From an uncultured archaeon (GTDB taxonomy: Archaea > Asgardarchaeota > Jordiarchaeia > Jordiarchaeales > Jordiarchaeaceae): DNA of 11,099 nucleotides. The position numbers were made by a program, and so were the translations under genes. The stretch spans positions 1 to 11,099 of the forward strand of contig CAZECW010000002.1 in the NCBI GenBank assembly GCA_964510585.1, given 5' to 3'. Positions 162 to 10,215 of this stretch are shown here, one piece after another (position 1 is the first letter of the stretch; the number at the start of each line of letters is the position of its first letter). The notes below the pieces were generated by a model. The model worked only from the letters and a program-made list of their open reading frames with translations, did no database searches and was not told where the DNA came from.

Positions 162-377
162 ATTTTTGTGTACGAATTCACGTCCTTTCCGGGTGATCTA
201 TACAAAAGTAACACTCCTCAAAATAGCTGTAACCGTGCTTGAAAAAGCAGATTCAAACAGTAAGTTTAACTGTAGAATACTTTCGCTTACCCCTCTCTCC
301 CCCACTTCGCCGTGAGTTTAAACGGAGTCTTTGTCAAAATTAAGCTTAAAAAAAAATCACTCTAAGAAGTCCATTGA

Positions 378-393
378 CCAAAAAATTATATAC
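378..393 (+). promoter_or_regulatory. Putative archaeal BRE/TATA promoter of the radA-like/polB2 operon
   Basis: CCAAAAAA-TTATATA (TATA-like at 386-392), about 30 nt upstream of ATG 423; GGAG motifs at 411-419 precede the start. Confidence 0.5.
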
Positions 394-422: not shown

Positions 423-1307
423 ATGCCCACTGGCTACAATGAAAACCTAACAGCCAACAATCCGAAAGCTCCATACCCCGCAAATCATCCAACCGCACCC
501 CTCTTCGAAATGGAGTTAACAGGCGAGTACCAAAACGCGTTAGACCTCTACTATCAAAATCTCAGCGCTGGAAAATTAACCACGGGAAGCTCCCTTCTGG
601 ACTCGCTCCTAGGCGGAGGAGTGGAAACCTCAACCTTCACTCTACTCTACGGAGACAGAAGAATCCTCGAAATACTGGTACACAAACTACTTGTAAATAC
701 CCTGCTCGACGCCACTAGGGGAGGCTTCGAATCACCAGCCATTTATGTATGCTGCAGCAACTATCGAAAGGAGAGAACAGTCCTAAACACCTACTACCTT
801 GCAGACATAGCCCTAAGCGCCGGCATAAATCCCACAGCAGCCTTCAGAAACATCCACGCAGCTATGGCCTTCAACCCCCTAGAAGAATACACCATAAGCA
901 AGGCAACGGGAAAGGTGGCGAGAAAAACGGGCTCCAAACTCATCCTAGTAGACAACATCGCTCTCCTACTCTGCGACGAAAAAATGAGAGAGGAATTCCC
1001 AGATGTGACTCTAACCTCAGTTGTGGGCAACTTCTGGAAGGCAGCGTTCCAAAACGACACCGCACTAGTGGCCACCTGCAGAGAAGCTTCCCCCAACCCT
1101 CATAAACAAACGATCCCCCCGCCTGAGGGAGGCTCTGTGCTCAGCCAGAAAGCGGGAGTAATTGTGTACCTGAGAGTCGGCCGCAGAAGAGCACCATTTG
1201 CAAAAGCCTATCTCCGCAAACATCCCTCTCTGGCAAACCGGGAGGTTGCCTTCACCTTCAACCGCTACTGCATCCATGATGACCCACTTTGGATGGAGAA
1301 TGATTAG
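423..1307 (+). CDS. RadA/Rad51-fold (RecA superfamily) protein, predicted ATPase-inactive, PolB2-associated
   Basis: LTTGSSLLDSLLGGGV (RadA TG..LD.LLGGG signature), Walker-B-like LILVDNI, PPPEGGSVLSQKAGVIVYLR (RadA P.GG..L.H....YLR region). Walker A position reads LYGDRRILE (no GKT); YIDTE position reads YVCCSN. No N-terminal HhH domain evident. Alternative start at Met 510. Confidence 0.85.
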   Translation: MPTGYNENLTANNPKAPYPANHPTAPLFEMELTGEYQNALDLYYQNLSAGKLTTGSSLLDSLLGGGVETSTFTLLYGDRRILEILVHKLLVNTLLDATRGGFESPAIYVCCSNYRKERTVLNTYYLADIALSAGINPTAAFRNIHAAMAFNPLEEYTISKATGKVARKTGSKLILVDNIALLLCDEKMREEFPDVTLTSVVGNFWKAAFQNDTALVATCREASPNPHKQTIPPPEGGSVLSQKAGVIVYLRVGRRRAPFAKAYLRKHPSLANREVAFTFNRYCIHDDPLWMEND

Positions 1308-1309
1308 AT

Positions 1310-1603
1310 ATGGGTAGGATCACTGTTCCCTTCCGCGCCGAGTTTAACGAGGTTCTTGAAAGGCTGAGGAAAACATTCTATGAAGCTCTCGTGGATATGG
1401 AGCGCCGGGAGGCTTTTGATGAGCTGATTAAGACTTGGTCTGAAACCAAGGGTGCCATGAGTTACGCTGAGCTTCCCTCAGTTCTGCTCTCCCTACTTTT
1501 TAGTGCAGTTGTGGACAACCGTAAAGAAATCATGCTCCTCAAAAAGAAACTGCTTGAAGGGAAGGAGGAGAATGGAAGGGTGGGTGGCTCAGAGCTACAT
1601 TGA
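1310..1603 (+). CDS. Small alpha-helical conserved protein of the type encoded next to archaeal PolB2 (arCOG07300-like, tentative)
   Basis: MGRITVPFR...FYEAL...REAFDEL...AMSYA..P....LLFS pattern resembles the small MGRTxPSFR proteins in polB2 operons. Starts 2 nt after the upstream stop and overlaps the polymerase start by 32 nt. Confidence 0.75.
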   Translation: MGRITVPFRAEFNEVLERLRKTFYEALVDMERREAFDELIKTWSETKGAMSYAELPSVLLSLLFSAVVDNRKEIMLLKKKLLEGKEENGRVGGSELH

Positions 1604-3710
1604 CGGAAACCGCGCGGTTAACTGGCTGAGAACAATCCAAGGATCCATCGAAAGGGTGGAGGAGCCTTACTACCCAGACTTTTATGTCCTTCCCCGGAAA
1701 GACCTAAACCCCGACGGTTTCTCCTGGCTTTTGAGGGAGGAGCCCCAAATATTTAGCGCCCAGGTTGAGTGGAAGTATGCAGATCTGAGAATGAGAAAGA
1801 AAATTCGAGTGGTTCACATTCAAACAGAGTCTCCCAAAGCCTTCAGGGAAGTTGTGGACATACTCAGAAGGCGGAACGCTGTCACAAAATTCTATGGCAC
1901 CGACATTACACACATTCAACGCTACCTCTGCATTCGCGGCTTCGCCCCCACTATGCTGGTAGAATATCGGAATCATCAGTTCACAAACCTAGAAGATCCG
2001 GATGAGCTTGCTCCGCCACCATTAACCAAAATTTTTCTCAGAGTGCAGACAGATAAAAATGGGTTTTCAGCTAACCTTGGATGCGCACCCATTAAAGGAG
2101 TCACCATATATGATTCCAATGGGGATAGTGAGGAGCTTGGTGGAAGCGAGGAGTACATTCTTGAGAGCCTTCAGAGAATAATAAAGAGTCGAGATCCAGA
2201 TATCATTGTGGCTCCCAGCCGTCCTCTTGGTGACCTCCACTATGTTGTCCAGAGGGCGAAGATCTTGGGATTTAAAATAAACCTTTCCCGCGAGGACGAT
2301 GAATCTGTCCAGCTTGATTTTCCTCCTTGGAGTTGTTGGAGGGGAAGGGCCTATGTTTCCTTGGAGTCATTTGAAAGGTTTGGTCTTGCGGGTTTGAGTG
2401 AGCTTTGCCGCTTTGGAATGATTCCTTTGGGTTTGGCTGCTAGGTGGGCTGCGGGAAGAATTGTGGATTGTAGACAGGTTTATGAGGCTATGAAACTGGG
2501 GGTTCTTATACCGGAGGCGAAGAGTTATAGTAACTATTTTAGAACAGTGGAGGAACTCTACCTGAAGGATCGGGGAGGGCTAATTATATCTCCTAGGGTG
2601 GGAGTGCATGAGAATGTTTGTGCGTTGGATTTTGAGTCCATGTATCCCAACCTGATTCTGCGTAGAAACATAAGTTATGAGACCTGTACACCCCAAGGTA
2701 TAGATTATTCGTGGAAGGGTTTGCTTCCTAGGGTGGCTGAGGTTGCCTTGGAGAGGAGGCTACACTTTAAACATTTGCGCCGCAGTTTTCCCGAAGGCAG
2801 TCCTGAGTATGTTTATGCGGATCAGCGTCAGGAGGCTTTGAAGATGATGTTGGTCGTGATATACGGTTACAGTGGTTGCACCTGGAACCGCTTCCAATAT
2901 GTTCCCACCTTTGAGAATATCAATCTACATGGGAGGGAGGTTTTCATCAGAGCCATAAACATTTCAATGAGGGAGGGCTTCCAAGTGGTATACGCGGACA
3001 CGGACTGCTTATTCGTTAAAAAACAGGGGGCTTCAAGTGAAGATTTTGAGAGACTTGCAGAGCGGATATCTGAAGAGGTTAATTTCCGCATCGCTATAGA
3101 CAATTTGTACCGCTTCTTGGTACTATTACCCTCCAAGTTAGATCCCATGGTTGATGTTGTGAAACGCTATTATGGTAAGCTTTACGATGGTAGACTCCAC
3201 CAGAGGGGAATAGAAGTAAGAAGACACGATACGCCCGGACTTATAAAGAGGTTTCAGGAGGAGTTGATGGAGATGCTGTTTGATGCTCAGAGTATTGAGG
3301 AGGTGAAGAAGAATTACCGTAAAGCTGTGGAGTTTACCCTTAAAACATATAAAAGGGTTCTTTCTGGAGAAGTGGATGTTGGCGAGCTCGTTGTGGAAAA
3401 AGACTTACATAAATCCCTAAAGGAGTATTCGAGAATCTATCCTCACGTGGCTGCAGGTAAACAGTTGGAAAATTATGGAACAGCCCCAAAAGAGGGACAG
3501 CTGGTCAGATACATCTATGTGAATCACTGCAGCTCCAATCCTCTTACCAGAGTACAAGCCCTACCCCTATATGATGGTCGAAGCTATGACAAAGAGAAGT
3601 ATGGTGAACTCGTCCTTGAAGCGGCGGAAACACTTCTCAAGGTATTTGGCTTCAAGAAAAAAGACGCAGACTCATCCCTCCAAAAATTGTTTGTCCAACG
3701 GACAGTGTAG
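1572..3710 (+). CDS. polB2: Family B DNA polymerase, archaeal PolB2 (Dpo2)-like, 712 aa, proofreading-deficient
   Basis: Motif A ALDFESMYPN (Asp at 2628), motif B QEALKMMLVVIYGYSG (Lys at 2841), motif C YADTDC (2991-3008), KRYYG, RGIEVRRHD. ExoI region reads IFLRVQT (no DxE). Start moved from 1503 to ATG 1572 because of GGAGGAG at 1564-1570 and a PolB2-like MEGW N-terminus. Confidence 0.9.
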   Translation: MEGWVAQSYIDGNRAVNWLRTIQGSIERVEEPYYPDFYVLPRKDLNPDGFSWLLREEPQIFSAQVEWKYADLRMRKKIRVVHIQTESPKAFREVVDILRRRNAVTKFYGTDITHIQRYLCIRGFAPTMLVEYRNHQFTNLEDPDELAPPPLTKIFLRVQTDKNGFSANLGCAPIKGVTIYDSNGDSEELGGSEEYILESLQRIIKSRDPDIIVAPSRPLGDLHYVVQRAKILGFKINLSREDDESVQLDFPPWSCWRGRAYVSLESFERFGLAGLSELCRFGMIPLGLAARWAAGRIVDCRQVYEAMKLGVLIPEAKSYSNYFRTVEELYLKDRGGLIISPRVGVHENVCALDFESMYPNLILRRNISYETCTPQGIDYSWKGLLPRVAEVALERRLHFKHLRRSFPEGSPEYVYADQRQEALKMMLVVIYGYSGCTWNRFQYVPTFENINLHGREVFIRAINISMREGFQVVYADTDCLFVKKQGASSEDFERLAERISEEVNFRIAIDNLYRFLVLLPSKLDPMVDVVKRYYGKLYDGRLHQRGIEVRRHDTPGLIKRFQEELMEMLFDAQSIEEVKKNYRKAVEFTLKTYKRVLSGEVDVGELVVEKDLHKSLKEYSRIYPHVAAGKQLENYGTAPKEGQLVRYIYVNHCSSNPLTRVQALPLYDGRSYDKEKYGELVLEAAETLLKVFGFKKKDADSSLQKLFVQRTV

Positions 3711-3723
3711 AATTCTAGGAAGA

Positions 3724-3744
3724 TTTTTTTCTTTGCTCATTTTT
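3724..3744 (+). terminator. Oligo-T archaeal terminator candidate after polB2
   Basis: T7-C-TTT-GCTCA-T5 tract starting 13 nt after the TAG at 3710. Confidence 0.45.
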
Positions 3745-3861: not shown

Positions 3862-6339
3862 ATGTCTTGTGTGGCTGTGGTGCTAGTGAAGTGTAAGATT
3901 ATTCTTTGTTTTTCGGGAACATTTGTGGCTCTGATTGGACTTTCTCTGAGTGATGCGCAGGTTTCAGTTTCGCTGCCTCTGTCTTCTTACATTTCTTTTT
4001 CTGGGCGGCTCGTCTGGGGTGGTTTTGGTTTCGCCGTATTTGTGATTGGTGAAATGTTGTTTTTTTCTTCGCTGGTATTCCTGTTTTTGGAAAAGAAGCT
4101 TAGGGAAGTTTGGATGGCGCAGCTTAGTAGGGCTGTGCTTTTCACCATAGGATCCCTTTTATTTGTGCAGAGGGTGGGTGGAAGCATCATACTTGATACT
4201 CCCTTTTTTGTTTTTTCAATCTATGTCGAAAATGTTTACACGGAGATGACTCAATACGTTGTTTTGTTCTCGCTCTTCACTACTCTTTCACTTGTTTTGG
4301 CTGGAGATTTCATTTTGAGGGGAGACGCTGCTGAGGGTCCTGGTGAGCGGTTCTACTTGTTGTGTGGTTTGTGTAACTTTGCACTGGGGGCCGTAATGGT
4401 TGCTTCTGTTTTCTTTACAATTTCAAACTATTCTTTCTACACTTTTCCGGGGAACGTATATTTCTATACGCAGCAAATTTTCTTTGTCACTGTCGATGCC
4501 TTCGAGGTTATTGGCGTTTTCTCAGCAGCTTTGGGCTGTGTAGTCATCGCCTTCAAGAAGAATCCCCCAAAAATTGGAAGAGGCCAAATAGTCGGGGGCT
4601 TCATTCTAATGGTGATGAGTGCCCCATTAACTTTTATCCCGCTACAGATTTGGATAGACCGATACGTTTTCTACTCGCAAATTTTAGCTCCCCTAGATCT
4701 AAGAAGAATCCATGGGATATTACCCCTGAACTTCAATCTATTTACCTACGTTTCACTCATAGTTTTCATGGTGGGTGTGCTAATCTACACTCGCGTTTCA
4801 AAATTAAAGACAGGAGTTATAATTGGATTCTTAGCATACCTTTACTTATATCCTAGTTTAAGGTTCACACTTTTTGAACATTACACTATTCCCACATTCA
4901 CTCCAACAATACCCACACATATTTACTTAGGACTGATTATTGTTCTGGCAGTAACGGGGAGACCTGTAGTTTCACAGTGGACACCCTTTGACCAAATTCG
5001 GAGAAGGTTAAAGTTCCTTGCGAAGACTGTCCCACTATTCGTAGTCCTATGTTCTCTGTTGGTCTCTCTAATATTTATAAGTGGGTGTGTTGCTACGACT
5101 CCTTTTGTTCAAAAGGGGTTGAGTCCTGATGACAGAATTGACCCAAGGCTTTTAAGCCTCAATCCTGTGCCTGAGAATGTTTCAGTCATAATGAGGTTTG
5201 ATAATCCCATATCGGAGGAGAACAAAACTGCTCTTAGCCACTATGACTTCTTCACTGTCACTCACATCTATGAGGAGGAATGGATGTCCTACTTTGCCAT
5301 CTACGGAATTATAAATACTAAAAGTATAGACTTTGTGCAGACGTTGAGAAATTTGGCTAAAGACTTTCCCCTAAGCGTTATACTCTATGACAACGGCGAT
5401 CCTTCAAATCTTCCAGACATCAACAGACATTATAGAGATTATTACTATGTAGGCTCAGACGTGCTCAGGAACTGGAACATAACGGGGCGGGAAACAACAG
5501 TGGCGGTAATTGACTCAGGAATAAACGACAACAATGAAGAAATAGCTGGAAAGAAAGAAGGCAGAATAGTATACCAGGTCAACTTCCTCACAGGACAGGA
5601 GGGAGACCCCCAAATAGTTGGAGATATTACCCCCGATTACCTCATAATGCATGGGACCTACACTGCAAGCATAGTTGCAGGAATAAAAGGAATAGCACCC
5701 GACGCAAACATCATAGACCTTAAAGTCAAAAACGACAATGGAGAATTATACTATATGACCTACACCTACGCCGTCGAGGCAGTAAAATGGTGCATAAGAA
5801 ACAAGGACAGATTCAACATCTCTGTAATCGTTCTCGCCATAGGCTGCAGAGACCAAATCTATGGATCACTAACAGAAGCGGTGGACCGTGCATTTCTCAA
5901 TGGCTTAGTCGTAGTCACCGGTGGAGGCGCAATAGACATAACAAAGGGTAAAATTGTAGGGGGCCTTATGACCCCCGGTATAGCTGACTGGGCAATAACG
6001 GTGGCAGCACTTAGCGAGTACACCGGTGACTGCTGGTCGCCTCTGAGCCCACTAGGTCCCTCGCCCCATTGGTATTTTCCAAAACCCGAAATAACTGCGG
6101 GATACGAAGTCACAAGCACAGCCACCTCAGTGGTTGCGGGGGTAGCACTACTCCTCGCCCAACAGTGCAACGAAGAGGGGCTTCCACCAGTCCTTAGATC
6201 CGCTATTATTCGCTGGGCTCTTATTATGGGAGCGCAACAATATGACTTGGGCACTCCTGGATGGGATGCTCAATATGGTTTCGGAAGAGTCAACGCACTT
6301 TGCTCATACCTGTTTCTCAAAAACTACTTGAAACTCTAA
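3862..6339 (+). CDS. Polytopic membrane protein fused to a C-terminal S8 (subtilisin-like) peptidase domain
   Basis: The first ~410 aa are a run of hydrophobic segments (about 11-12 by eye). Then TVAVIDSGI (Asp 5512-5514), HGTYTASIVAG (His 5650-5652), GIAPDANI, KPEITAG, VTSTATSVVAGVALLL (Ser 6115-6117) and DLGTPGWDAQYGFGRVNA. Exact start uncertain. Confidence 0.85.
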   Translation: MSCVAVVLVKCKIILCFSGTFVALIGLSLSDAQVSVSLPLSSYISFSGRLVWGGFGFAVFVIGEMLFFSSLVFLFLEKKLREVWMAQLSRAVLFTIGSLLFVQRVGGSIILDTPFFVFSIYVENVYTEMTQYVVLFSLFTTLSLVLAGDFILRGDAAEGPGERFYLLCGLCNFALGAVMVASVFFTISNYSFYTFPGNVYFYTQQIFFVTVDAFEVIGVFSAALGCVVIAFKKNPPKIGRGQIVGGFILMVMSAPLTFIPLQIWIDRYVFYSQILAPLDLRRIHGILPLNFNLFTYVSLIVFMVGVLIYTRVSKLKTGVIIGFLAYLYLYPSLRFTLFEHYTIPTFTPTIPTHIYLGLIIVLAVTGRPVVSQWTPFDQIRRRLKFLAKTVPLFVVLCSLLVSLIFISGCVATTPFVQKGLSPDDRIDPRLLSLNPVPENVSVIMRFDNPISEENKTALSHYDFFTVTHIYEEEWMSYFAIYGIINTKSIDFVQTLRNLAKDFPLSVILYDNGDPSNLPDINRHYRDYYYVGSDVLRNWNITGRETTVAVIDSGINDNNEEIAGKKEGRIVYQVNFLTGQEGDPQIVGDITPDYLIMHGTYTASIVAGIKGIAPDANIIDLKVKNDNGELYYMTYTYAVEAVKWCIRNKDRFNISVIVLAIGCRDQIYGSLTEAVDRAFLNGLVVVTGGGAIDITKGKIVGGLMTPGIADWAITVAALSEYTGDCWSPLSPLGPSPHWYFPKPEITAGYEVTSTATSVVAGVALLLAQQCNEEGLPPVLRSAIIRWALIMGAQQYDLGTPGWDAQYGFGRVNALCSYLFLKNYLKL

Positions 6340-6405: not shown

Positions 6406-7371
6406 TTACTTGAATATTTTTTCTCTGATTAGTTTCTGTGTTTTTGCTGGGTCTCCTTCATTTATGGCCTTTTCCAACTCGTCTCTACCAATTTTGTCCA
6501 GAATCTTGGAAAAGGCTTTGAGCATCTCTATGCTCTCCCTTGAAGCTTCAAGTGGGTCTTCTCTGTAGGGGTATATGTCGAGTGAGTACCAGCCGTCGTA
6601 GCCCATCTTTTCAAGCCAATAAATCAGTTCCAGATATTCTATTGTGTGTACTGAGCCCACAATCATGTCGTCGTCCCAAAGCCGGTAATTATCATTTAGG
6701 TGCAAGTGGAATAGTCTTCCGTCTCTCATGCAAAGAACCGCGGACTCAGCCATACTTTCATAAGCGGCGAGTGCGTGTCCCACATCTATGGTGACCCCCA
6801 CATTTTTCATTCCAGTTTCGTGTGCGATGAGCAGGGCTTTGTCAACTGTTGCTATGTAGGAGTGTGTTCGGGGCTCTTTTAGCTTATATTCCAGGCACAC
6901 CTTAACCCCTGTCTTTGCAATTTCTTTAATGGAGTCAACCAGCAGGTCCCAGGCCTTTGGATAATTGGATTGGAAGGGGTAATCGTAGCCGTCTTGCCCA
7001 AGCCAGATATTGAATGAGTCGCACCCCACTTTTTTTGTAATTTCGATTCCCCTTTTGCATACTTCAATTGCTTCCCTGCGGATTTCTGGATTCGTAGAGG
7101 AGAGGCTGCCCTTCTGCCACTTTCTATCTCCAGTAAGATCAACGCCCACCATTGAAACCCTTAGACCCGTTTCTTTGAGCACAGCTCTTAACTCTTCAAG
7201 ATTTTTTTCATCCACGTTGCCCGGATATCCTAATTCAACGCCACTAAGGTCCTTTATTGTTGCAACTTTTCTAATTACTTCCTCAAGCGGCATACTGGGT
7301 CTGTAACCCTCTATGAGAAACCTGTCTCCACATGGGCTAAAAGCCCAAACACCAAGCGAAAATTTTTTCAC
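6406..7371 (-). CDS. Xylose-isomerase-like TIM-barrel sugar isomerase (substrate uncertain; L-rhamnose suggested by context)
   Basis: GVWAF, WLGQDGYDYPFQ, LEYKLKEPR, TIDVGHA, HLHLNDNYRLWDDD and LDIYP metal-binding motifs. GTG at 7371 is preferred over ATG 7413 because GGTGG lies 4 nt upstream (7376-7380), as for neighbouring genes. Confidence 0.8.
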   Translation of the reverse strand: MKKFSLGVWAFSPCGDRFLIEGYRPSMPLEEVIRKVATIKDLSGVELGYPGNVDEKNLEELRAVLKETGLRVSMVGVDLTGDRKWQKGSLSSTNPEIRREAIEVCKRGIEITKKVGCDSFNIWLGQDGYDYPFQSNYPKAWDLLVDSIKEIAKTGVKVCLEYKLKEPRTHSYIATVDKALLIAHETGMKNVGVTIDVGHALAAYESMAESAVLCMRDGRLFHLHLNDNYRLWDDDMIVGSVHTIEYLELIYWLEKMGYDGWYSLDIYPYREDPLEASRESIEMLKAFSKILDKIGRDELEKAINEGDPAKTQKLIREKIFK

Positions 7372-7465
7372 AAAACCACCATCCGGAGCCAAATTTTTAA
7401 TGTAAATTCTCATAAACTGGTTAATACATATTACTATTTTAATTGGTAAAAGTGTGTTTGGTGAT

Positions 7466-8929
7466 TTAAATTACTTCCATGTATCTTTTGAAGGCTTCAT
7501 CCCATTGCGACGCATTTTCAGGCCTATACATTCTTGGTTTAAACGAGTTTCGCACAATTTTCCGAATAGTGTGCAGGGAAACTTTATCGCGTAATGCGCA
7601 AGCTTGGGTTAGAATGTTTCCTATCGCCGTTGCTTCAATTGGACCAGCATAAACTGGGAGATTCAGTGCATCAGCAACATATTGGCAGAACAACTCGTTC
7701 CGAGAGCCGCCTCCAATAATATAAACCTCCTCCAAAGAACTCCCCAAAAGACTTTTTAGTCCCTCAAAAACCTCTCTATGCCTCAAAGCCAAGCTTTCAA
7801 GAATACAACGCACAATCTCACCACGCTTCCTAGGAGGCTCCTGCCCTGTTCGCCTACAAAAGTTTTGGATAGCTTCAGGCATACTCTGAGGATTAAGGAA
7901 AATAGGATCATCAGGATTAACGAAACATCTAAATTCCGGGCACTCCTGTGACTCCCGAATCAGCTCCCCATAAGATACATCAGTTCCCAATTTCCATTTT
8001 CTTATACATTCCTGAAGAAGCCAGAAGCCCGTAATGTTTTTCAAAAACCTAATAGTTTTTTCCACGCCTACCTCATTGGCAAACCCTACCCTCAGAACAT
8101 TCTCGTCAACGAGGGGTTTGGATAGTTCGGTTCCCATAAGAGACCAGGTGCCTGAACTTATAAAGAGAAATTTCTTATCCCCTGCGGGTGCAGCTGCCAC
8201 AGCAGCGGCGGTATCATGGCAGGGAGGCGTAGTAACAAGTGTCCCTCTCAGTCCCAACTCACCTTTCAGTTGATCAGCCAACTCTCCGAGAACCGTTCCG
8301 GGTGGAACTATTTTTTGGAACCAGCGGGGGTTGAATCTCAGTTTCTCTATAAGGGGCCAACACCAATCATGCTTAAATACATCGTAAATCTGAGTAGTGC
8401 TTGCCAAAGTCATCTCTGAGACAGATTTTCCGGAAAGTAGGTAGTTGAAGAAGTCGGCAATCATAAGAATCTTATCAGTGATAGATGCCACGGGAGTTTT
8501 ACTCATCGCATAGAGCTGGTAAATAGTGTTTATCCTCATAAACTGAATTCCAGTATAAGAGAAAATCTCCTCTCTCGGAACCAACTTTAGTACCTCTTCC
8601 ATAACGCCCTCAGTTCTGGAGTCCCTATAATGCCTGGGGTTACTCACAAGTTCACCCCTTGCATCTAGTGGAGCATAGTCAACACCCCAGCTGTCAACCC
8701 CCAAACTGGCTATTTCCCCCCCACAAATCTGAACACAACGACATAAACCTTCCCTAATCTCATCGTAGAATCTTAAAACATCCCAATAAAGCCCCCCAAA
8801 CAAGCGTGTACCCTCTGTTCTAAACCTGTAAATCTCCTCCAAAGTCAGCCTATTACCCGACCAGTCTAACCTGCCCAACATCAGTCTCCCAGAACTAGCA
8901 CCCATATCCACAGCAACAAAATTCTCCAA
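7466..8929 (-). CDS. rhaB: Rhamnulokinase (FGGY carbohydrate kinase family)
   Basis: AVDMGASSGR, LYWD, GVDSWGVDY, YRDSRT, TGIQFMRINTIYQL, CHDTAAAV, ISSGTWSLMGTE, RFLKNITGFWLLQEC, GGGSRN, AGPIEATAIGN. TTG start with GGTGG at 8936-8940. Confidence 0.9.
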   Translation of the reverse strand: MENFVAVDMGASSGRLMLGRLDWSGNRLTLEEIYRFRTEGTRLFGGLYWDVLRFYDEIREGLCRCVQICGGEIASLGVDSWGVDYAPLDARGELVSNPRHYRDSRTEGVMEEVLKLVPREEIFSYTGIQFMRINTIYQLYAMSKTPVASITDKILMIADFFNYLLSGKSVSEMTLASTTQIYDVFKHDWCWPLIEKLRFNPRWFQKIVPPGTVLGELADQLKGELGLRGTLVTTPPCHDTAAAVAAAPAGDKKFLFISSGTWSLMGTELSKPLVDENVLRVGFANEVGVEKTIRFLKNITGFWLLQECIRKWKLGTDVSYGELIRESQECPEFRCFVNPDDPIFLNPQSMPEAIQNFCRRTGQEPPRKRGEIVRCILESLALRHREVFEGLKSLLGSSLEEVYIIGGGSRNELFCQYVADALNLPVYAGPIEATAIGNILTQACALRDKVSLHTIRKIVRNSFKPRMYRPENASQWDEAFKRYMEVI

Positions 8930-9066: not shown

Positions 9067-10215
9067 TTATCTTCTTCTAGCCAAAACTACTGCTACGCCT
9101 AACAGCAATAAGGCGGCAGCGGCTATCCCACCGTAGAGTAGTATTTTTGAAGTTGCTTGAGCCGCATAACCTAAATATATGGCTGCAAATGTTAGTATCA
9201 TAGGTAGGTAGTTTGGTTCAAGCAGAGCAAAGTATGGATCTATGTATATATTACCGTCGCTGAAATCTTCGTAAGAGAAAGCAATATTGATAGTCAGTGT
9301 TTCATTGTTTAGACTGAATGTTGAATTGCTATGGCATGGGTCATGGGTACTGTTGTATGCACCGTTAAACCAGCTGAACTCGGCAACTGGGATTCCCCAA
9401 GAATCAATGAATTCAACTTCAGAAACATCTTCATTCAGTGAGGGAACAAGTCCGCTTCCACCATTTGCTACAACTGCCCCCTCAGCCCACCGGTAGCGAT
9501 ACTGAAGGGAGTCACCGAGACATGAGTGCAGAGTTATCACCAAGGCTAGAAATCTAGAACTATAAGGGTTCTCTACAGTTTCTCCCTGCCATTGATAACT
9601 TGTGATATTCAATTCGAATTTTAAGGATGAAAGCTTCGGAACTGTGACGCTGGAGTCGCCGAACGAAACTTTTTGTGATTCAAAGTACAATAAAATGCCA
9701 AAAGCAAGGTTGAAGGCTCCTGTCTTTTCTGTTCCCTCTATGGAAATCTTGATGTATTCAAAAAGTGGAGGCATTTGTTGTATCAGAGGGCCCAACTCTA
9801 TGGTTAATTTATTCCAATTAACATCGGTGGCCAAATTGTATTCTTTTAGAACGTTGTCTGTTCTATTATCACTATTATCATAGCATTGGTTATTGTTGGT
9901 GTCGTTGAATTCTACTAGTCTTGCAAAGTTTAAGCCGAACCTACTGTTCGCTAGTGCTCTGTGGGTGAAATTGCAAGAAACGAAACTTTGAGAGAGGTTG
10001 CACATAAACATACCCGTGAAAAAGGATCTAGTGTTGTTGTTGAACCAAGAATCCCACCAGTCGAGTGATTCTATTGATTTTTCTGGTTTGCTAGGCTCCG
10101 CTGTTGGGAGGCTTACTGTTGCTGTGGCTGGTGTTGTAAGTGCTGGTAGGGCTATAACTAGTGCAAATAGTGCTAACATTGCTATAGTTGATGCCAGTAT
10201 CATCTTTCTTTTCAT
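9067..10215 (-). CDS. Secreted, C-terminally membrane-anchored cell-surface glycoprotein, function unknown
   Basis: Basic plus hydrophobic signal peptide (MKRKMILASTIAMLALFALVIALP), Thr/Pro linker, nine N-x-S/T sequons, beta-rich-looking core, C-terminal hydrophobic helices ending ARRR. GGGTGA RBS at 10222-10227. Confidence 0.8.
   Translation of the reverse strand: MKRKMILASTIAMLALFALVIALPALTTPATATVSLPTAEPSKPEKSIESLDWWDSWFNNNTRSFFTGMFMCNLSQSFVSCNFTHRALANSRFGLNFARLVEFNDTNNNQCYDNSDNRTDNVLKEYNLATDVNWNKLTIELGPLIQQMPPLFEYIKISIEGTEKTGAFNLAFGILLYFESQKVSFGDSSVTVPKLSSLKFELNITSYQWQGETVENPYSSRFLALVITLHSCLGDSLQYRYRWAEGAVVANGGSGLVPSLNEDVSEVEFIDSWGIPVAEFSWFNGAYNSTHDPCHSNSTFSLNNETLTINIAFSYEDFSDGNIYIDPYFALLEPNYLPMILTFAAIYLGYAAQATSKILLYGGIAAAALLLLGVAVVLARRR

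Follow-up and report, generated by a model that had tools for sequence, protein, structure and literature searches.

The locus examined here raises the question of what the three co-oriented genes at positions 423-3710 of contig CAZECW010000002.1 encode and how their expression is controlled. The window, which is the whole stretch of 11,099 nucleotides (nt) that was analyzed, is one entire contig of the 3.78-Mb genome (96% complete) of an uncultured archaeon, and its nearest named homologues carry the labels Ca. Jordarchaeum, Freyarchaeota, and Baldrarchaeia (all Asgard archaea). The three genes constitute an already published system, the iRadA-PPB2-PolB2 cassette. We consider it probable that this cassette, in a form in which the DxD motif of the polymerase is intact, specifies one proofreading-free polymerase complex that is induced by DNA damage through an Orc1-2-type protein acting at 276-285. 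The features of the operon and its upstream region are as follows.

276..295, + strand: box resembling the DNA damage-responsive element (DDRE), with the core AATACTTTCG at 276-285 and ANTTTC at 279-284; by its sequence likely a site for an Orc1-2-type regulator
317..322, + strand: TATA-like TTTAAA, 41 nt past the start of the box (40-41 nt also at the tfb and orc sites)
334..353, + strand: 20-nt element with a 10-nt palindrome, invariant in 6/6 genomes of the genus; candidate B recognition element (BRE)/TATA or second operator
386..392, + strand: second TATA-like element, followed by GGAG at 411-414
423..1307, + strand: iRadA, 294 amino acids (aa), Rad51/RadA fold without Walker A or the catalytic Glu
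1310..1603, + strand: PPB2 (arCOG07300), 97 aa, three helices, N-terminal MGRIT arm with invariant R3 and R9
1572..3710, + strand: PolB2 of the DxD-intact subtype, 712 aa from the ATG at 1572; motifs A (D353), B, and C (YADTD), D333-R334, FRTV at residues 323-326, dead exonuclease
3724..3730, + strand: T7 tract, candidate archaeal terminator as read from the sequence

A previous sequence-only reading of this DNA described three co-oriented genes with a 2-nt gap and a 32-nt overlap, followed by a T-tract. The same coordinates were recovered in the present study, with the tract located at 3724-3730. The ATG of PolB2 at 1572 is preceded by GGAGG at 1564-1568, and the open reading frame (ORF) listing gives a longer GTG start at 1503. 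That reading counted one TATA-like element upstream; such an element is present, probably at 386-392, but the region contains three conserved AT-rich elements rather than one. Neither the intact DxD motif nor the damage-response-like box farther upstream was noted in it.

The cassette was correctly recognized in that reading as PolB2, an inactive RadA, and a small protein. However, the novelty attributed to the three-component complex was overstated. The operon was described in 2014 (Makarova 2014, PMC4104785), and 1,823 complete operons, 1,375 of them in the present order, were subsequently reported together with the names iRadA and PPB2 (Timinskas 2025, PMC11791011). In the same paper, the complex was modelled as a heteropentamer, PolB2-iRadA-PPB2x3, for 40 species. 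A 2026 review describes it as still experimentally unverified (PMC13324097), and for the literature since 2024 on iRadA or PPB2, PMC11791011 and PMC13324097 were the only relevant papers among the top 20 of 112 matches. Since the cassette is already known and modelled, finding it is in itself ordinary, and the value of the locus lies in the likely damage regulon around it.

The first gene was expected to encode a RecA-fold protein lacking Walker A, and this was borne out: iRadA matches Pfam Rad51 at 1.7e-16. Its Walker A position reads YGDRRILEIL, as opposed to FGEFGSGKTQL in RadA, and DTE is changed to CSN, such that Walker A and the catalytic Glu are both replaced and the ATPase site is dead. 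No GxxxxGK was found anywhere in the iRadA sequence. The match starts at position 60-65 of the RadA models, with the N-terminal helical domain absent. An FxxA-like motif is kept (Y36/A39); among 50 iRadA homologues, the first position is F or Y in 41 and the last is A or G in 46. A clamp motif was not detected at the iRadA C terminus. The genome carries three full RadA-like genes, and a Walker-A-intact radA lies on the same strand upstream of the cassette in 19 of the 47 related loci for which 3 kb or more of upstream DNA was available. The FxxA-like motif and this upstream radA suggest that iRadA could cap a RadA filament. Table S1 of PMC11791011, which lists 20 neighbour families, does not include Rad51. 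The third-codon G+T content ranges from 0.18 to 0.38 within iRadA and from 0.55 to 0.68 within PPB2, with the skew switching abruptly near the gene border (423-1603); the protease gene downstream shows comparable swings.

PPB2 was modelled as a three-helix protein (pLDDT 88.8), in agreement with the small helical protein predicted from the sequence. Its profile matches the small gene of the Haloferax volcanii cassette at 3e-12, and its homologues carry the precomputed annotation PF26485. G2, R3, and R9 are invariant in 43/43 homologues, and the same residues are stressed in PMC11791011. A fold search gave no match above Z 5.7, and the match to the SigR N-domain (1h3l; Z 4.8, root-mean-square deviation 4.3, 70 aligned residues) was tied with unrelated helical chains. 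iRadA and PPB2 are fused in 39 of the 54 related loci with conserved order. A further PPB2-like copy, disrupted by two stops, occurs in one relative (2671274-2671486 of its contig C1).

The third gene encodes a B-family polymerase without proofreading motifs, as had been proposed. It matches DNA_pol_B at 3e-34, its model has a pLDDT of 88.0, and the top Foldseek matches are archaeal PolBs. In the segments that we take to be ExoI, ExoII, and ExoIII, the D-x-E of ExoI is replaced by R157-x-Q159, ExoII is degenerate and retains D221 alone (one orthologue has N here), and ExoIII has been deleted. Motif C is intact (YADTD, D476/D478); unlike in the majority of PolB2, the first Asp is not replaced. 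A DxD-intact minority exists among PolB2 (PMC11791011), and YADTD therefore sets the subtype of this enzyme. The D(K/R) loop corresponds to D333-R334, located after the FxxA-like F323-R-T-V, and D333 is invariant in 40/40 sequences. No PIP box or other clamp motif is conserved in PolB2 or iRadA; a PIP-like SLQKLF at the PolB2 C terminus was rejected because it was not kept in 5/5 orthologues.

In an IQ-TREE phylogeny of 48 hand-picked rows (LG+G4 without a mixture model), the polymerase was placed with 100/99 support in the PolB2 clade, which also contained H. volcanii PolB2 and short HxIxD proteins. A FastTree phylogeny, which kept 93 of 139 rows under a 70% filter (6 were dropped for lack of an anchor motif or length), gave this placement a support of 99. 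In both trees, the other two B polymerases of the genome fell in the PolB1 and PolB3 clades, the clade names being assigned from gene content and motifs. The Jordarchaeia PolB2s fall (100/100) within a group of mostly DxD-type enzymes from Bathyarchaeia, Nitrososphaeria, and Thermoprotei. A single clade of ten Asgard rows (Jordarchaeia and six other Asgard PolB2s), a group chosen after the first tree was seen, was rejected by the approximately unbiased (AU) test (p=1e-66, cost 155 log units). A transfer, probably with a TACK-like donor, is the simplest account of this separation; ancient paralogy is a less likely one. If the donor lineage lacked the box described below, the cassette would have gained the box or replaced a native cassette in place. 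The main text of PMC11791011 places DxD-intact PolB2 in TACK only, and its supplementary table includes one Jordarchaeia PolB2 with DTD, which was scored as 'only PolB2' and excluded from the published tree. What the present copy adds is a full DxD-intact operon in a Jordarchaeia/Freyarchaeota Asgard host. The DxD subtype was also found in at least two other Asgard families. In one Bathyarchaeia-rich clade, motif C decays stepwise (DTD, DSD, DCD, NSD, NND, NTD, and PFD), an independent loss of the first aspartate.

A Y-family polymerase (PF00817) was not found in 6/6 genomes of the genus; the same search was positive in 10/14 controls. The PolB2 complex would therefore be the main bypass polymerase of the genus. 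A DxD-intact PolB2 in a genus with no detected Y-family polymerase offers a test of whether loss of the first aspartate makes PolB2 mutagenic.

The full operon is present in 6/6 genomes of the genus, and the order iRadA-PPB2-PolB2 holds in 5/5 same-genus genomes. This order is kept in 54 of the 59 related loci with at least 1.4 kb of upstream DNA, and one of the five misses was a false negative of the script. Grouping with the replicative PolB1/PolB3 and an unconserved gene order had been named in the sequence-only reading as grounds for abandoning it; the polymerase groups with PolB2, and the order is conserved both in the genus and in related loci. The cassette was not found in 5/5 genomes of the sister family (73-95% complete). 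PPB2 and the divergent Orc discussed below occur together in 18 of the 61 genomes of the phylum, alone in 8 and 5, respectively, and neither occurs in 30, counts in which kin are not independent. Other arrangements were also observed, with iRadA convergent with PPB2-PolB2 or PolB2 divergent from iRadA-PPB2, and orc1/cdc6 homologues lie near five related cassettes.

The control of the operon was approached through its upstream DNA. An alignment of six upstream regions first revealed the box as a conserved block at 276-285. ANTTTC within a 20-bp consensus is the Orc1-2 site of Sulfolobus (PMC6061795, PMC5817253), and the operon box matches this published consensus at 15/20 positions. The exact 10-mer is located at -139..-148 before the operon in 5/6 genomes of the genus. 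In the sixth, the box is at the end of another contig, separated from the operon by an insertion element. This element has inverted ends of 20 bp and a target duplication of 9 bp; it lies between the box and the TATA-like site in that relative and represents a natural promoter disruption. The 10-mer has five exact copies in the 3.78-Mb genome, three of which precede the operon, a tfb paralogue (contig C156), and a divergent orc1/cdc6 paralogue (contig C157), each 40-41 nt before a TTTAAA. The best genome-wide match to the published consensus, a single 19/20 among 7.56 million positions, is the site before the tfb paralogue. Matrices built from the other two genes ranked the held-out site 12th, 5th, and 3rd of 7.56 million, and only 11 of 2167 upstream windows genome-wide reached 15/20.

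The box recurs beyond this genome. Among the genus genomes with upstream DNA, it precedes the tfb paralogue in 5/5 and the orc paralogue in 5/5 (two variants). Outside the genus, in other Asgard families, it was found before 14 of 25 tfb loci (shuffle mean 0.77, maximum 5) and 12 of 18 divergent-orc loci (shuffle mean 0.40, maximum 2), in both cases loci from the best-scoring subset of matches. A weaker core precedes 6/6 cassettes of one other Asgard family at -126..-167. Positive controls in Thermoprotei reached 15-16/20 before 3/3 Orc1-2-type genes and 6/8 PolB2 cassettes, and over a run of 16 bases, 15 are identical between the orc site and a Thermoprotei Orc1-2-type promoter. A score of 14/20 was not attained by any canonical non-Orc1-2 Orc gene with upstream DNA in these Asgard and Thermoprotei genomes. 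Five relatives contain 33 further exact 10-mer sites, none of which revealed an additional convincing target; most are inside ORFs, and no intergenic one has a TATA-like site at 34-52 nt. A matrix scan yielded no fourth site meeting all criteria (3 real sites versus 0-1 in ten column shuffles, the three sites being circular in this count). The 334-353 element has only three other sites in the genome within three mismatches. Rfam gave no match at E up to 1, and a sigma-70 scan, a method unsuited to archaea, was at chance level.

A candidate regulator is present in the genus. The DNA-binding residues demonstrated for Orc1-2 are R353/R354/T356/R381/R383 (PMC12490963), and 5/5 relatives encode an Orc1-2-type protein in which RRHT and a wing K-G-K have exactly this spacing. 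The protein groups with the controls (SH-aLRT 92), and both it and the control protein pass one and the same NCBIfam equivalog. The boxed divergent Orc1/Cdc6 (2407-3510 of its extracted locus) has intact Walker A and B motifs and belongs to a clade found in 23/61 genomes of the phylum. The boxed TFB paralogue (3995-4996 of its extracted locus) has close matches in 51/61. Whether Orc1-2 also regulates the damage response outside Sulfolobales was a question posed in PMC6061795. Since the cassette promoter and two regulator genes share a signal matching the Sulfolobus damage switch, the cassette is likely induced by damage through the same circuit. By analogy with the Sulfolobus experiments, an Orc1-2-type protein likely binds ANTTTC here and activates transcription.

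Several results weigh against damage induction through an Orc1-2-type protein. The operon site alone scores only 15/20, as well as 958 genome positions do, and when a matrix was built from nothing but the operon sites, the tfb site came 906th. The matrix scan did not recover any other repair gene. The box was not enriched before the closest TACK cassettes (5/72 versus 4.8 by shuffle, counted with another pattern and window than the 20-bp scoring), only 1/20 other Asgard cassettes reached 14/20 (shuffle 0.5), and no box was found at the tfb loci of Asgard families f9, f13, and f16. Moreover, the related genomes are non-independent samples. The architecture also appears to differ. In Sulfolobus, the hexamer is located at -44..-39, just upstream of BRE/TATA and approximately 14 nt before the TATA (PMC5817253), whereas the nearest conserved TATA-like site here is approximately 38 nt downstream. 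As for the regulators, the Jordarchaeia Orc1-2-type wing has a Lys pair where Sulfolobus has an Arg pair, and Sulfolobus orc1-2 is autoregulated, whereas the promoter of the Orc1-2-type gene has only a 9/20 site; that of the divergent paralogue scores 14-15/20. The Orc whose gene carries the box is a divergent paralogue specific to Asgard archaea rather than an Orc1-2 orthologue, and its winged helix lacks the DNA-binding arginines. The boxed TFB paralogue is full length (333 aa, aligning over the whole TFB model), whereas TFB3 is truncated. The Orc1-2-type gene was not found in the assembly of this genome, from which all three canonical Orc genes are missing, most likely an assembly gap. The literature search found no experiment on this organism, any DxD-intact PolB2, or the whole complex.

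The mechanism that we propose builds on direct observations, namely, the gene identities, motif states, gene order, tree position, and the box with its recurrence. DNA damage would activate the Orc1-2-type protein, which would bind the box at 276-285 and induce the operon, and the same box would co-induce the TFB paralogue and the divergent Orc1/Cdc6 gene. PolB2 would then dock on iRadA through its FxxA-like loop (FRTV 323-326), while a PPB2 trimer would place one MGRIT arm in the cleft beside D333-R334. The docking and arm insertion are likely in view of the published models of other members. The resulting complex would extend primers past lesions without proofreading. Experiments in Sulfolobus make it likely that this PolB2 extends mismatches and lesions and is responsible for damage-induced mutagenesis.

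Bacterial ImuA-ImuB-DnaE2 likewise combines a polymerase with a recombinase-like and an accessory subunit in damage-induced mutagenesis. The sequence-only reading called the present operon ImuABC-like. A complex for damage tolerance is indeed likely, but the small subunit is helical and not an ImuB-like dead polymerase, and membership in the ImuA-ImuB-DnaE2 system was rejected because the genome has no PF00817 and the polymerase is of the B family. In its comparison of the five-subunit PolB2 mutasome, PMC11791011 likens it to Escherichia coli Pol V (UmuD'2C-RecA), not to ImuABC; polymerase, recombinase-like, and accessory subunits act there in damage-induced mutagenesis. The present polymerase is of family B, not Y or C, and its accessory subunit is unrelated, such that the likeness to Pol V and ImuABC is an analogy apart from the RecA/Rad51 fold. 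The closest system is PolB2 mutasome operon group 1a, with the same genes, order, and signature motifs (no Walker A, MGRxT arm with R3/R9, D(K/R) loop, and dead exonuclease); this copy differs in being DxD-intact and in conserving the clamp motif in neither subunit. Sulfolobus Dpo2, which is damage-induced and mutagenic (PMC7390963) and an exonuclease-free extender (PMC8764526), resembles the present enzyme in its PolB2 clade, lack of proofreading, and partner genes. However, Dpo2 is among the smallest PolB2s, has HxxxD in motif C, and works beside the Y-family Dpo4, whereas this PolB2 has 712 aa and YADTD. The likeness to the Sulfolobales Orc1-2/DDRE/TFB3 regulon consists of ANTTTC within a 15-19/20 match before the polB2 operon, a tfb paralogue, and an orc1/cdc6 gene, and of an Orc1-2-type protein with RRxT in the genus.

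Other explanations concern either the function of the complex or the control of the box. A replicative PolB3 or PolB1 with chance neighbours has a negligible probability. The intact YADTD and the best solved-structure matches, which are of the PolB3 type, are in line with it; the nearest structure is uninformative because no PolB2- or Dpo2-named chain was among the matches listed. The dead exonuclease and D(K/R) loop speak against a replicative enzyme, and the tree position together with the conserved synteny and fusions refutes a PolB1/PolB3 identity. It is also very improbable that the complex acts with Orc1/Cdc6 in replication initiation or fork processing. This role was proposed in 2014 (PMC4104785) and is in keeping with the orc1/cdc6 homologues near some related cassettes; however, later Orc1-2 regulatory work accounts for the Orc link, PolB1 and PolB3 are present as separate enzymes in the genus, and the sister family is without a detected cassette. 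The DxD-intact complex may instead be a recombination-coupled repair polymerase, with iRadA capping the RadA filament through its FxxA-like motif and handing the invading 3' end to PolB2. We regard this as rather unlikely. The conserved FxxA-like positions (41/50 and 46/50), the radA upstream in 19/47 loci, the canonical active site, the three full RadA-like genes, and the accuracy of Sulfolobus Dpo2 on undamaged DNA (PMC8764526) favour such a polymerase, but no radA adjoins the operon in the genus, the exonuclease is dead, and the only genetics, which concern Dpo2, revealed damage-targeted mutagenesis (PMC7390963). Repair-polymerase and mutagenic-extender roles are not mutually exclusive.

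The box is subject to a separate doubt. The operon may encode a PolB2 mutasome, with the box read by another regulator, or in response to another cue such as the cell cycle or growth phase, or representing an element of promoter architecture. The different TATA-like spacing and the poor site before the Orc1-2-type gene are consistent with this explanation, as are the natures of the co-boxed genes (a transcription factor and an Orc paralogue) and the presence of the box before tfb in families without a detected PPB2 (f8 and most of f15). However, the match reaches well past the hexamer, as in the orc site with its 15/16 identity to a Thermoprotei Orc1-2-type promoter; orc1/cdc6, tfb, and polB2 are the gene classes of the Sulfolobus circuit (PMC6061795); and no canonical non-Orc1-2 Orc with upstream DNA reached 14/20. 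We regard another regulator, cue, or architectural role as unlikely, though it deserves some weight, and retain induction by damage through an Orc1-2-type protein as the preferred explanation.

A broader proposal, to which we give slightly less than an even chance, is that Asgard archaea possess an SOS-like regulon on the Sulfolobus signal, comprising the Orc1-2-type protein, an Asgard-wide TFB paralogue, the divergent Asgard-specific Orc, and, in Jordarchaeia, a TACK-derived DxD-intact mutasome that became part of the host circuit and in which iRadA serves as an adaptor between the RadA filament and PolB2. If this is true, an Orc1/Cdc6-based damage-response circuit would span TACK and Asgard archaea and would be older than their split, and hence older than the archaeal ancestor of eukaryotes. 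A literature search by title and abstract opening found no paper that places an Orc1-2/DDRE regulon in Asgard archaea. The proposal can be tested with recombinant protein on the basis of three promoters, a candidate regulator whose recognition helix is of the right kind, and the natural disruption of one box by an insertion sequence.

The remainder of the contig contains the following features.

3862-6339: membrane-anchored S8 protease, 825 aa, directly 3' of the operon in 4/6 genomes of the genus
6406-8929, minus strand: sugar isomerase and rhamnulokinase-like FGGY kinase pair, both below equivalog cut-offs
9067-10215: secreted-looking protein, 382 aa
10415-10897: flavodoxin

Positions 1-141 are the 3' half of a non-coding repeat of approximately 260 nt, which has hairpin-like sequences near both ends that match each other and is presumably a non-autonomous IS200/IS605 derivative. 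The genome contains 70 copies of this repeat with a length of 120 nt or more, many of them at contig ends.

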